Below, in pieces: positions 4,533 through 6,759 of a DNA stretch of 11,400 nt (positions within the stretch are counted from its first letter, which is position 1; every line of letters begins with the position of its first letter). Position numbers and translations under genes: made by a program. The notes beneath the pieces are model-generated. The model saw only the letters and a list, made by a program, of their open reading frames with translations. It did not search any database and was not told where the DNA came from. The DNA comes from Enhygromyxa sp. Its GTDB lineage: Bacteria; Myxococcota_A; Polyangia; Nannocystales; Nannocystaceae. The stretch spans positions 1 to 11,400 of the forward strand of contig DATLLB010000914.1 in assembly GCA_035538075.1 (NCBI GenBank). The letters are read 5' to 3'.

Positions 4533-5396
4533 ATGGGCGCCCGGCCGGACGACGACGACGATCGGTTCACGACCGTCGAGCGCGTCGCTTGGCTAGCGGG
4601 CGCGCGCGGGCCGATCGAGGCCGATCTGGTCGCGCGCGAGGAGCCGCTGGAGATCCGCATCAACCAGACGCCGATCGCCGTGGTCATGCGCACGCCCGGC
4701 GACGACGAGGCGCTGGTGCGCGGGTTCTTGCTCAGCGAACGGATCGTCGCGAGCCCCGAGCAGATCGTCGCGCTGCGGCACTGCACGAGCGTCGATCGAC
4801 CGGAGGCCGAGGACAACGTGATGCTGGTGCGGCTGCGCGATGACGCGGACGTCGATCTCGCTGCCCTGCGTCGCAACTTGTTTGCGAGCAGCTCGTGCGG
4901 CGTGTGTGGCAAGGCCAGCATCGAGCAGGCGCTCGCGCTGCCCGAGCTTCGCCGCGCGGTCGATGGGTTTGTGATCGATGCGCTCACGCTCGCGCGCTGG
5001 CCCGAGCAGTTGCGGGCGGCGCAGGAGGTGTTCGAGCACACCGGGGGCCTGCACGGCGCGGGGCTATTCACGGCGGAGGGGGAGTTGCTCGCTGCGTTCG
5101 AGGATGTCGGGCGCCACAACGCCGTCGACAAGCTGATCGGCTGGGCTGCGCGCGAGGGTGTGGCGCTGGACGAGTGCGGGCTGATGGTCTCGGGGCGGGT
5201 GTCGTTCGAGATCACGCAGAAGGCGGTCGCGGTCGGGATCCCGCTGATCGCCGCCGTGTCGGCTCCGACTTCGCTCGCGGTCGAGCTCGCGCGCGCGGCC
5301 GGGATCACGCTGGTGTGCTTCGTCCGCGAGCAGCGGATGTGCGTCTACGCGGGCGAGCAGCGCATCAAGCCGCTCAAGCCACCTGCGTCACCGTGA
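4533..5396 (+). CDS. fdhD: Formate dehydrogenase accessory sulfurtransferase FdhD
   Basis: The family signature motifs SSCGVCGK (catalytic Cys loop) and GRHNAVDK are present. The N-terminal region AREEPLEIRINQTPIAVVMRTPGDDEALVRGFLLSERIV is collinear with the E. coli FdhD segment [39 protein letters not shown], which I am recalling from memory. Length is 287 aa. TGA stop. Confidence 0.88.
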   Translation: MGARPDDDDDRFTTVERVAWLAGARGPIEADLVAREEPLEIRINQTPIAVVMRTPGDDEALVRGFLLSERIVASPEQIVALRHCTSVDRPEAEDNVMLVRLRDDADVDLAALRRNLFASSSCGVCGKASIEQALALPELRRAVDGFVIDALTLARWPEQLRAAQEVFEHTGGLHGAGLFTAEGELLAAFEDVGRHNAVDKLIGWAAREGVALDECGLMVSGRVSFEITQKAVAVGIPLIAAVSAPTSLAVELARAAGITLVCFVREQRMCVYAGEQRIKPLKPPASP

Positions 5397-6759
5397 ACGC
5401 CCGCGAGCGATCGAAGCGGACCTCGTAGACCGGCAGCCCAGCAGCCAGCCGCGCGACCGTGGCGTCGAGCTGACGCTTGCCGAGCGCACAGATCAAATCC
5501 CCGAGCGCACCGACGTCCAGCTCGAGCTCGGCCAGCTCCGAGACCAAGAAACCCGCCCGAAAGCGCCGCAGTTGCGCGGCGATCTGCGGGTGCAGCACGA
5601 ACATCTGCAAGCCCTCGAACGCGGGCGAGATCAGCGGAATCTTGGTGTGCGGATAGAGCTCTTCCTCGAGGGTGACCAGCATGATCGCGCCCTCGCCATG
5701 GTCGCCGCCGAGCACCACGTACTCGGCCTCGTCGGTGCCGCCCCAGCGTTGCAGAAAGAACGCACGCAAGAACGCGTCCGCGGCCTCACGGCGCAGCCCG
5801 TAGTCGGCCGAGCTCTGCATGCTCAATCGCAGGTGACCGCAGCCGACGTGCTGCGGGTTGACCAAGTGCTCGAGCAACGCCTCGCGCACGGCCACGGGCG
5901 GCCGACGCATGAACGCGCGCCACTCGGGCGGATGAAAGACGCCGTCGAGGTGCGGCACGATCCGCGCGTCGGCCCGAAACGCCTTGATCATGGCGTTGAG
6001 CGCGTTGACGTCGGTGTGCATGTAGAAGCGGCCGAAGGTGTCGAGCCAGGCCTCGAGCAGCTTGGCGACGCGTGCCTCGTCGAGCGCGACGCCGCTGAGC
6101 TGCTCGACGGCCGCGAGCGCGAGCGTGAACTCGCCTGCGTCGCCGCCCGGCGTGCCGATCACCCCGCGATCGTCGCGACCGTCGATGCACGCGGTCTTGC
6201 CGTGCAGCATCAGCGCGGCGAACTTGACCCACCGCACCGAGCCGGGCTGGCCGACGTGCCACGCGACCTGCTCGGTCGTGAGCCGACAGTCGGGCGTGAT
6301 CGCTTGCCCCGGCGGCGTTGCGAGCTGCTGATCGAGGCGACGATCGAAGACGATGGTCCTGCGGCTGATCGAGAAGCCGAGGTCGCGCCACTGTCGAACG
6401 CCGCCGAGCAGCGCGGCGACCATCTTCATGCCGACGCGCTCGAGGTACAGCGCCGCGGCGCTCGACCGCTCGCCGTCGTCGCACACGAGCACGACCGGCG
6501 CGTCGAGGCCGAGCAGCTCGGGGATCGTGTGGATCTCGGCGAGCGGGACCGGGTACGAGCCCGGCAGGTGACCGAGGTTGCCGATCAACTCCTCGGACGC
6601 GCGCACGTCGATCAAGCGCACGTCTCGACCGAGCTCGGCCACGAACTCGGCGCGCAGCATCGGTCGATTGCCGCGCGAGCGATCGACGGACTCGAGCCAG
6701 TTGAGCTGGTTGATGCGGCGGGTGATCAGCGGCGTCGGCATCCGCGTGGATGCTCGCAC
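5374..6759 (-). CDS. Rhodanese-domain protein with a roughly 300-aa uncharacterised C-terminal domain rich in Cys and His. The start is uncertain: GTG at 6759, ATG at 6741, or ATG at 6660.
   Basis: The N-terminal rhodanese fold and active-site loop are present (…VRLIDVRASEEL…PVVLVCDDGERSSAAALYL…). The C-terminal region carries TACIDGRD and QHVGCGHL (CxDxR and HxxCG-like) plus GGDHGEG. G/C third-position bias is good. The ORF opens immediately after the TGA of the upstream lipoprotein gene (9-nt gap), which suggests an operon. Confidence 0.72.
   Translation of the reverse strand: MRASTRMPTPLITRRINQLNWLESVDRSRGNRPMLRAEFVAELGRDVRLIDVRASEELIGNLGHLPGSYPVPLAEIHTIPELLGLDAPVVLVCDDGERSSAAALYLERVGMKMVAALLGGVRQWRDLGFSISRRTIVFDRRLDQQLATPPGQAITPDCRLTTEQVAWHVGQPGSVRWVKFAALMLHGKTACIDGRDDRGVIGTPGGDAGEFTLALAAVEQLSGVALDEARVAKLLEAWLDTFGRFYMHTDVNALNAMIKAFRADARIVPHLDGVFHPPEWRAFMRRPPVAVREALLEHLVNPQHVGCGHLRLSMQSSADYGLRREAADAFLRAFFLQRWGGTDEAEYVVLGGDHGEGAIMLVTLEEELYPHTKIPLISPAFEGLQMFVLHPQIAAQLRRFRAGFLVSELAELELDVGALGDLICALGKRQLDATVARLAAGLPVYEVRFDRSRAFTVTQVA

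Follow-up and report, generated by a model that had tools for sequence, protein, structure and literature searches.

A conserved rhodanese fusion protein of Myxococcota whose C-terminal domain resembles ζ-class carbonic anhydrases in predicted fold and catalytic signature

Carbonic anhydrases (CAs) of the ζ class have, to our knowledge, so far been viewed as a diatom curiosity, and they include the only cadmium enzyme known. Each repeat of the cadmium/zinc enzyme CDCA1 from Thalassiosira weissflogii (3uk8, 3bob, 3boh, 7bez) consists of a three-stranded lobe with the metal ligands and a four-stranded lobe that serves as substrate pocket (PMC4413181). In repeat R3, Cys473, His525 and Cys535 hold the metal, and the placement of Asp475, Gly536 and an Asp/Arg dyad follows that of the β-class CAs (PMC8217695). 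We analyzed an 11,400-nucleotide (nt) stretch of DNA from Enhygromyxa sp. (contig DATLLB010000914.1, termed the window) in which a conserved gene encodes an N-terminal rhodanese domain fused to a large C-terminal domain (Table 1). CDCA1 is the closest known system to this protein, which is, unlike the diatom enzyme, bacterial, predicted to be cytoplasmic and rhodanese-fused. Judging from residue conservation and the predicted structure, we hold it to be somewhat more probable than all other readings together that the protein belongs to an unrecognized family of metal-dependent, ζ-CA-like hydratases of the CO2 type, and that it is not a sulfur-relay partner of the product of the convergent neighbor gene fdhD.

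No sequence similarity is detectable between the C-terminal domain and CDCA1, and neither phmmer nor single-sequence searches with residues ~156–461 gave a match in Pfam, NCBIfam or among PDB sequences. Neither Pfam nor NCBIfam has a curated model for the domain, and we found no paper on the family in the literature on CA classes, bacterial ζ-CA homologues, bestrophin–rhodanese combinations or Cyanophora CAs. A first reading of the window from its letters alone, termed here the original prediction, had noted a CA resemblance in the motifs of this region and had named profile searches and structure prediction as checks; Pfam and PDB sequences returned nothing, whereas the predicted fold pointed to the ζ class. 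AlphaFold2 models reached a predicted local distance difference test (pLDDT) score of 90.3 for the full-length protein and of 89.1 for the C-terminal domain alone. In fold searches, CDCA1 was the only significant structural relative of the domain. Independently, the top five Foldseek matches were all CDCA1 chains (R1, R2, R3), with probabilities of 0.57–0.93, target-normalized template modeling scores of 0.49–0.54 and E-values of only 0.1–0.4. The β-CAs ranked behind them with negligible probability, and the model did not show the β-CA fold. It does contain the two-lobe fold of CDCA, with a small, ligand-bearing sheet of about three strands that is followed by a four-stranded lobe. The C-terminal domain hence appears to be a highly diverged relative of the ζ-class fold, with homology at the structural level only. 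By sequence, the protein is a member of neither the ζ- nor the β-CAs; what it shares with them, according to the model, is the ζ-CA fold and the catalytic signature common to both classes.

This signature is strongly conserved. Across 255 copies of the domain, Cys191, Asp193, Gly194, Gly206, His248, Asp250, Gly306, Cys307 and Glu356 are invariant, and Arg195 (254 copies), His309 (254), His354 (253), Gly308 (251) and His390 (250) are nearly so. In the single copy that lacks His309, Phe takes its place, which matches the C-G-F of CDCA1. Conservation of the CxDGR and GCGH motifs is far beyond chance in these alignments, and the Cys, His and Cys residues together with the Asp/Arg dyad follow each other in the CDCA order, where residue equivalence with CDCA1 was derived from order, spacing and secondary structure and not from superposition. 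In the model, Cys191 closes a strand, His248 lies in the adjacent strand, FYMHTD, of the ligand-bearing lobe, and Cys307–Gly308 opens a helix, as does the Cys-Gly pair of β-CAs. The same Cys-His-Cys and Asp/Arg ligand chemistry as proposed here is found in β-CAs and in the hydrolases of carbonyl sulfide (COS) and CS2; in E. coli Can (1i6p), the corresponding residues, verified in its sequence, are C42-S-D44-S-R46, H98 and C101-G102, and in CDCA1-R3 the counterpart of C191-I-D193 is C473-V-D475. Nowhere is the metal-free model less confident than in the CxDGR loop, which has low pLDDT. A loop that depends on metal would fit this; CDCA1, too, opens up around its Cys ligands when the metal is missing (PMC4413181).

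The motifs from which the CA resemblance had originally been read, TACIDGRD (with Cys191) and QHVGCGHL (with Cys307), are present in the translation, as is GGDHGEG, and with CDCA1 as sole significant structural relative and CxDGR and Cys-Gly essentially invariant the resemblance itself was borne out. Conservation upheld CxDxR as one of the two suggested metal-ligand motifs, but not the His of the other, HxxCG. At this position, His304, only 14 of 30 sequences have His, the others having Asn (9), Ala (6) or Val (1), and we ruled it out as a metal ligand; the histidine ligand is likely His248. The spacing had also been described as longer than in canonical β-CAs. This applies to the second interval, where a helical insertion of about 50 residues precedes Cys-Gly and His and Cys are 59 residues apart compared with 10 in CDCA1, but not to the first, as the distance of 57 residues from Cys191 to His248 is normal for β- and ζ-CAs (52 in CDCA1-R3, 56 in E. 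coli Can).

We envisage a cytoplasmic two-domain protein in which Cys191, His248 and Cys307 would bind a divalent metal (most likely Zn2+) whose fourth ligand would be water or hydroxide. The Asp193–Arg195 dyad and the backbone amide of Gly308 would orient the metal-bound hydroxide, which would attack a small linear heterocumulene held between the two lobes. CO2 would be the most likely substrate (CO2 + H2O ↔ HCO3− + H+), with COS and CS2 as possible side or alternative substrates. Asp250, His309, His354, Glu356 and His390 may form part of the pocket lining or of a proton relay.

The family is large. A word-indexed homologue search with the full protein (E ≤ 0.001) found 513 homologues; the 120 listed cover 92–100% of the query at 43–85% identity and are mostly from Myxococcota, and those with a name are annotated as ‘rhodanese-like’ only. 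An exhaustive profile search with only the C-terminal domain, covering 1.84 billion representatives, yielded 1463 clusters (50% identity) at E ≤ 1e-3, 348 of them at E ≤ 1e-30. We further confirmed 188 loci in a collection of genomes at species level; nearly all of the best 80 are from Myxococcota (Nannocystaceae, Polyangiales, Myxococcaceae, Archangium, Sandaracinaceae, Haliangiales, Kofleriaceae and Minicystis), with a few from Acidobacteriota and Binatia.

Rhodanese is not a constant companion of the domain. The 150 best representatives include 72 rhodanese fusions, 47 standalone proteins of about 300 residues, 17 proteins of intermediate length without rhodanese (346–699 residues) and four long multi-repeat proteins. 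About 10 of 16 intermediate N termini inspected (proteins of 346–432 residues) have a signal peptide or a lipobox, and these forms are therefore predicted to be secreted proteins or lipoproteins. Eight rhodanese-less proteins with signal peptide and lipobox Cys (P0161, P0163, P0180, P0184, P0218, P0226, P0233, P0246) are predicted periplasmic lipoproteins. Three of the four multi-repeat proteins are from the glaucophyte Cyanophora paradoxa (P0121, P0122 and P0249, from EukProt); tandem copies also occur in a metagenomic protein (P0263). Each Cyanophora protein combines two to four tandem domain copies with a signal peptide and with a membrane anchor at the C terminus, which recalls the three-repeat CDCA1; the repeats of P0249 are partly degenerate (GCEHL, EGDRVEG). 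A divergent eukaryote-like repeat, used as query, matched only unnamed metagenomic fragments. Long His-rich runs occur in P0122, after the signal peptide, and in P0166, and P0180 and P0203 have N-terminal linkers rich in His, Asp and Glu. Since the extracytoplasmic forms carry the two invariant Cys residues, a role of these as metal ligands would fit better than a cytoplasmic persulfide relay, and the architectures as a whole seem better suited to a metalloenzyme than to a cytoplasmic sulfur relay.

For genomic context, we compared the stop-to-stop open reading frames (ORFs) of 83 loci, clustered by cross-locus BLASTP. A single neighbor, a bestrophin gene (Pfam Bestrophin_2, E 6e-76), was shared repeatedly by different lineages. 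Of the 70 loci with enough flank, 23 have it immediately beside the rhodanese fusion gene (L013/L006, L024–L026, L035, L017, L018 and L050, among others). It then lies co-directionally upstream, at gaps of −4 to +79 nt, or follows downstream in convergent orientation, and the loci concerned fall into six or more separate clades of the protein tree. In several genomes the enzyme is present as two paralogues, only one of which is bestrophin-linked (L025 vs L037, L024 vs L032, L026 vs L022). Bestrophins are Cl−/HCO3− channels that act with CAs in algal CO2-concentrating mechanisms (PMC6708349, PMC11142338). Their adjacency in about one-third of myxobacterial loci suggests an enzyme–channel pair, which at the bestrophin-linked loci would handle bicarbonate or a related anion. 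DabA of the inorganic-carbon pump DabAB, which we take as an analogy, is likewise highly diverged, with a β/ζ-CA-like Zn site and a membrane partner (PMC13144422), which parallels the bestrophin adjacency. The two differ in that the window protein has no match to Pfam PF10070 and that the DabA partner is a proton-pumping NuoL/Mrp-like subunit, not an anion channel. At other loci the gene is abutted by transporter genes, i.e., for an APC permease (Nannocystis), a BCCT or a CitMHS-TrkA_C protein, and in another lineage a Na+/H+ exchanger–TrkA gene lies one gene away; as a functional clue, these assorted transporters are a weak hint only. Around three standalone homologues, the gene neighborhoods were not informative.

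A bolder version of this proposal, for which we see rather less than an even chance, would make the window protein the founding bacterial member of a new CA class. This class would be a deep sister of the diatom ζ-CAs, would be found throughout Myxococcota, often as a two-gene module with bestrophin, and would have been recruited in Cyanophora paradoxa as multi-repeat surface proteins, possibly as an external CA of the CO2-concentrating mechanism. If the family does consist of ζ-CA-like hydratases, the active-site design of β- and ζ-CAs would reach into a new set of organisms that comprises Myxococcota from soil and sediment, some Acidobacteriota and one glaucophyte alga. Hundreds of proteins named only ‘rhodanese-like’ would obtain a first functional lead, and the pairing with bacterial bestrophins would be open to testing. 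The fusion would moreover be an example of a rhodanese domain that is kept although it has largely lost its catalytic Cys.

Several observations weigh against a ζ-CA-like CO2 hydratase. None of 34 diverse members of the domain family matched Pfam even at E ≤ 10, and two family profiles (A2, A3) searched against PDB sequences found no CDCA or β-CA. With hhalign, a family profile aligned to E. coli Can over a local stretch of 26 columns at GCG, setting the GCGH motif on YGC101GG, with a probability of 2.4%. At about 310 residues, compared with about 210 for a CDCA repeat, the domain is larger by about 100 residues. The CO2 pocket of CDCA1 is hydrophobic, formed by Val, Phe, Phe, Thr and Leu (PMC8217695), whereas in our family His309, His354, Glu356 and His390 are invariant or nearly so and polar, a difference that may point to a substrate other than CO2. 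Finally, the window has no bestrophin gene, and neither have 47 of the 70 loci.

The N-terminal half of the protein bears on the alternatives. It matches the rhodanese family PF00581 (residues 42–125, 44.3 bits vs a cutoff of 22.2, E 2.5e-11), has the rhodanese α/β fold, and contains Cys93 in an unusually acidic C-x4-R loop (C93-DDGE-R98), so that the rhodanese module with its VCDDGERS Cys loop had been called correctly. Its best NCBIfam matches are the rhodanese modules of MoeB and MoeZ, and its best matches in sequence and structure are GlpE, PspE and BpPRF, a persulfide dioxygenase–rhodanese fusion (5ve3-5). Like BpPRF, the window protein joins a rhodanese domain to a metalloenzyme domain, which is a predicted one here; the partner domain of BpPRF is unrelated, with a metallo-β-lactamase fold. 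The rhodanese Cys is essential in PRF, whereas most members of our family have Ser instead: in 186 fused homologues, the position of Cys93 is occupied by Ser in 130, Cys in 45, Asp in eight, Gly in two and Ala in one, and in the 83 genomic loci by Ser in 68 and Cys in 11. The window protein and relatives with at least 67% identity have Cys and relatives with 63–65% identity have Ser; Ser is also found in the closest relatives in the genome collection (L008–L010). A single base separates the TGC codon from AGC or TCC, and an interchange at such shallow depth may indicate relaxed or switching selection. Because Cys is replaced in most homologues, the rhodanese domain is, from these alignments, not the conserved catalytic part of the fusion. 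Cys93 is not a family feature, and the conserved function of the fusion would therefore be independent of a rhodanese persulfide. While the domain is by sequence a member of the rhodanese homology superfamily, its membership in the active sulfurtransferases is uncertain. More probably it would bind an anion, regulate or mediate docking, and Cys93 of the window protein could still carry a persulfide as an optional sulfurtransferase capacity.

Among the alternatives, a sulfur heterocumulene as substrate survives best, although we regard it as unlikely. The metal site would be the same, but COS, CS2 or a related compound would be hydrolyzed and H2S released, with the rhodanese domain handling the sulfur. 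CDCA1 also hydrolyzes CS2, and relatives of the β-CAs include COS and CS2 hydrolases (PMC8217695). Cys93 is retained in the window protein, and the invariant polar residues near the presumed pocket argue against plain CO2. However, the rhodanese Cys is absent in ~76% of fused homologues, and many members have no rhodanese domain at all. Moreover, rhodaneses carry sulfane sulfur and not the sulfide that is freed by COS or CS2 hydrolysis. No sulfur-metabolism genes recur either in the neighborhoods of the 83 loci or in those of a deep-branching Cys-type clade, where only assorted transporters and enzymes were found.

Slightly less probable still is a non-catalytic sensor or regulator, whose CA-like domain would bind metal or CO2/HCO3− and whose rhodanese domain would bind an anion, together gating a channel or transporter such as bestrophin. 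A rhodanese domain that is mostly catalytically dead, the adjacency of bestrophin genes and the other transporter genes at or near the locus would all be compatible with this. The full catalytic set including the Asp/Arg dyad is, however, strictly conserved, which is more typical of an active enzyme, and secreted lipoproteins and algal multi-repeat surface proteins suit an enzyme better than a cytoplasmic regulator.

We give marginally less credit to a hydrolase or lyase of unrelated chemistry on the CDCA scaffold, which would employ His354, Glu356, His390, Asp250 and His309, possibly with a metal, and leave the Cys residues a structural role. The extra invariant His, Glu and Asp residues, five polar positions in all, have no described counterpart in CDCA1, and the additional ~100 residues and the missing sequence homology to CAs point in the same direction. 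Yet this would require a coincidence, as the β/ζ signature (C-x-D-x-R, His at +57, C-G) is found on just the fold that bears it.

The gene itself is real and conserved. As an ORF it starts at GTG 6759, with the stop codon at 5374..5376, but an identical protein in the database, P0001 (from the metagenome-assembled genome of an Enhygromyxa sp.), and its close homologues begin at ATG 6741 (MPTPLITRR...), which is therefore probably the true start, giving a protein of 455 residues. Residue numbers given here refer to the version of 461 residues, and P0001 numbering is lower by six. In the original prediction, the gene was separated from an upstream lipoprotein gene by 9 nt. The TGA stop codon of the latter indeed lies 9 nt before GTG 6759, but from ATG 6741 the intergenic gap would be 27 nt. 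On the opposite strand, a frame of 1356 codons (5572..9642, +) extends across the rhodanese and lipoprotein genes; this portion is a high-GC ‘shadow’ ORF. Only the distal part (~7.5–9.6 kb), with a weak TrAA12-like Pfam match, is a candidate gene, which would be divergent from that of the lipoprotein.

Table 1 Features of the rhodanese fusion gene and its direct neighbors in the window.
Feature	Position	Strand	Remark
Whole ORF	5374..6759	−	461 residues from GTG; probable start ATG 6741
Rhodanese homology domain, residues 42–125	6385..6636	−	
Rhodanese active-site loop C93-D-D-G-E-R98	6466..6483	−	Cys93 codon 6481..6483
ζ-CA-like domain, residues ~156–461	5377..6294	−	two β-sheet lobes, helical insertion, C-terminal hairpin
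C191-I-D193-G-R195	6175..6189	−	proposed first metal ligand (Cys) and catalytic Asp/Arg dyad
His248 in strand FYMH248TD250	6016..6018	−	proposed histidine metal ligand
G306-C307-G308-H309, helix N terminus	5833..5844	−	proposed second Cys ligand, then conserved Gly
H354-G-E356, second-lobe strand	5692..5700	−	candidate pocket or proton-relay residues, presumed role
His390 in FVLH390PQ, second lobe	5590..5592	−	candidate pocket or proton-relay residue, presumed role
Lipoprotein-like gene, 239 residues	6769..7488	−	upstream, probably co-transcribed; no Pfam or NCBIfam family
fdhD	4533..5396	+	convergent, 23-bp overlap with the rhodanese ORF

The neighbor fdhD is well recognizable (Pfam FdhD-NarQ, E 1e-74; NCBIfam equivalog, 290 bits), and its CGxCG loop (CGVCG) and tail-to-tail overlap with the rhodanese gene were confirmed. 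The fdhD and lipoprotein genes had been taken as clues to function, with a survey of neighbors proposed as check. In this survey neither was a conserved partner, bestrophin being the sole recurrent neighbor: fdhD lies within 6 kb of the gene in three of the 83 loci, all from one Nannocystaceae clade, and the lipoprotein gene is found in two. We hence rejected both as functional partners, and fdhD is a lineage-specific neighbor, not a family-wide one. In Nannocystaceae ST9 (L001), a zinc-type alcohol dehydrogenase gene and a ParE toxin–antitoxin pair (10509..11038) lie between the rhodanese gene and fdhD, a gene of 740 codons separates the rhodanese gene from a lipoprotein homologue with 58% identity, and IS66 transposase genes are nearby. 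From the intervening genes and IS66 we conclude that the region was rearranged between close relatives.

A sulfur relay from a Cys93 persulfide via Cys191/Cys307 to FdhD for sulfuration of the molybdenum cofactor, in line with the sulfur-trafficking function first suggested, is tempting given the overlapping genes, the presence of Cys93 and the MoeB/MoeZ-like rhodanese module, but we consider it very improbable and the link unsupported, as convergent genes are not co-transcribed, fdhD is confined to one clade and separated in ST9, the nearest relatives in the genome collection and most fused homologues have Ser for Cys93, and periplasmic, secreted and rhodanese-less forms exist. What remains is a large family with a predicted ζ-CA fold and its catalytic signature.

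Divergent from fdhD, an ORF of 435 codons (3198..4505, −) encodes a protein without Pfam family that may be a hydrolase, as it has a GHSAGG motif. Its homologue in ST9 (61% identity, L001 11938-13230) is also divergent from fdhD, and therefore this gene, and not the rhodanese gene, is the conserved neighbor of fdhD. The ORF at 7510..9648 (−, 712 residues) belongs to no family and has no homologue in ST9. At the other side of the window, an ORF of 815 codons (699..3146, −) encodes a bacterial protein homologous to the major vault protein (MVP) of eukaryotes, with Pfam matches to MVP_shoulder (E 1.6e-27) and to one Vault_3 repeat (E 1.4e-6); with phmmer, its residues 460–770 match the structures of human and rat MVP (E ~3e-15).

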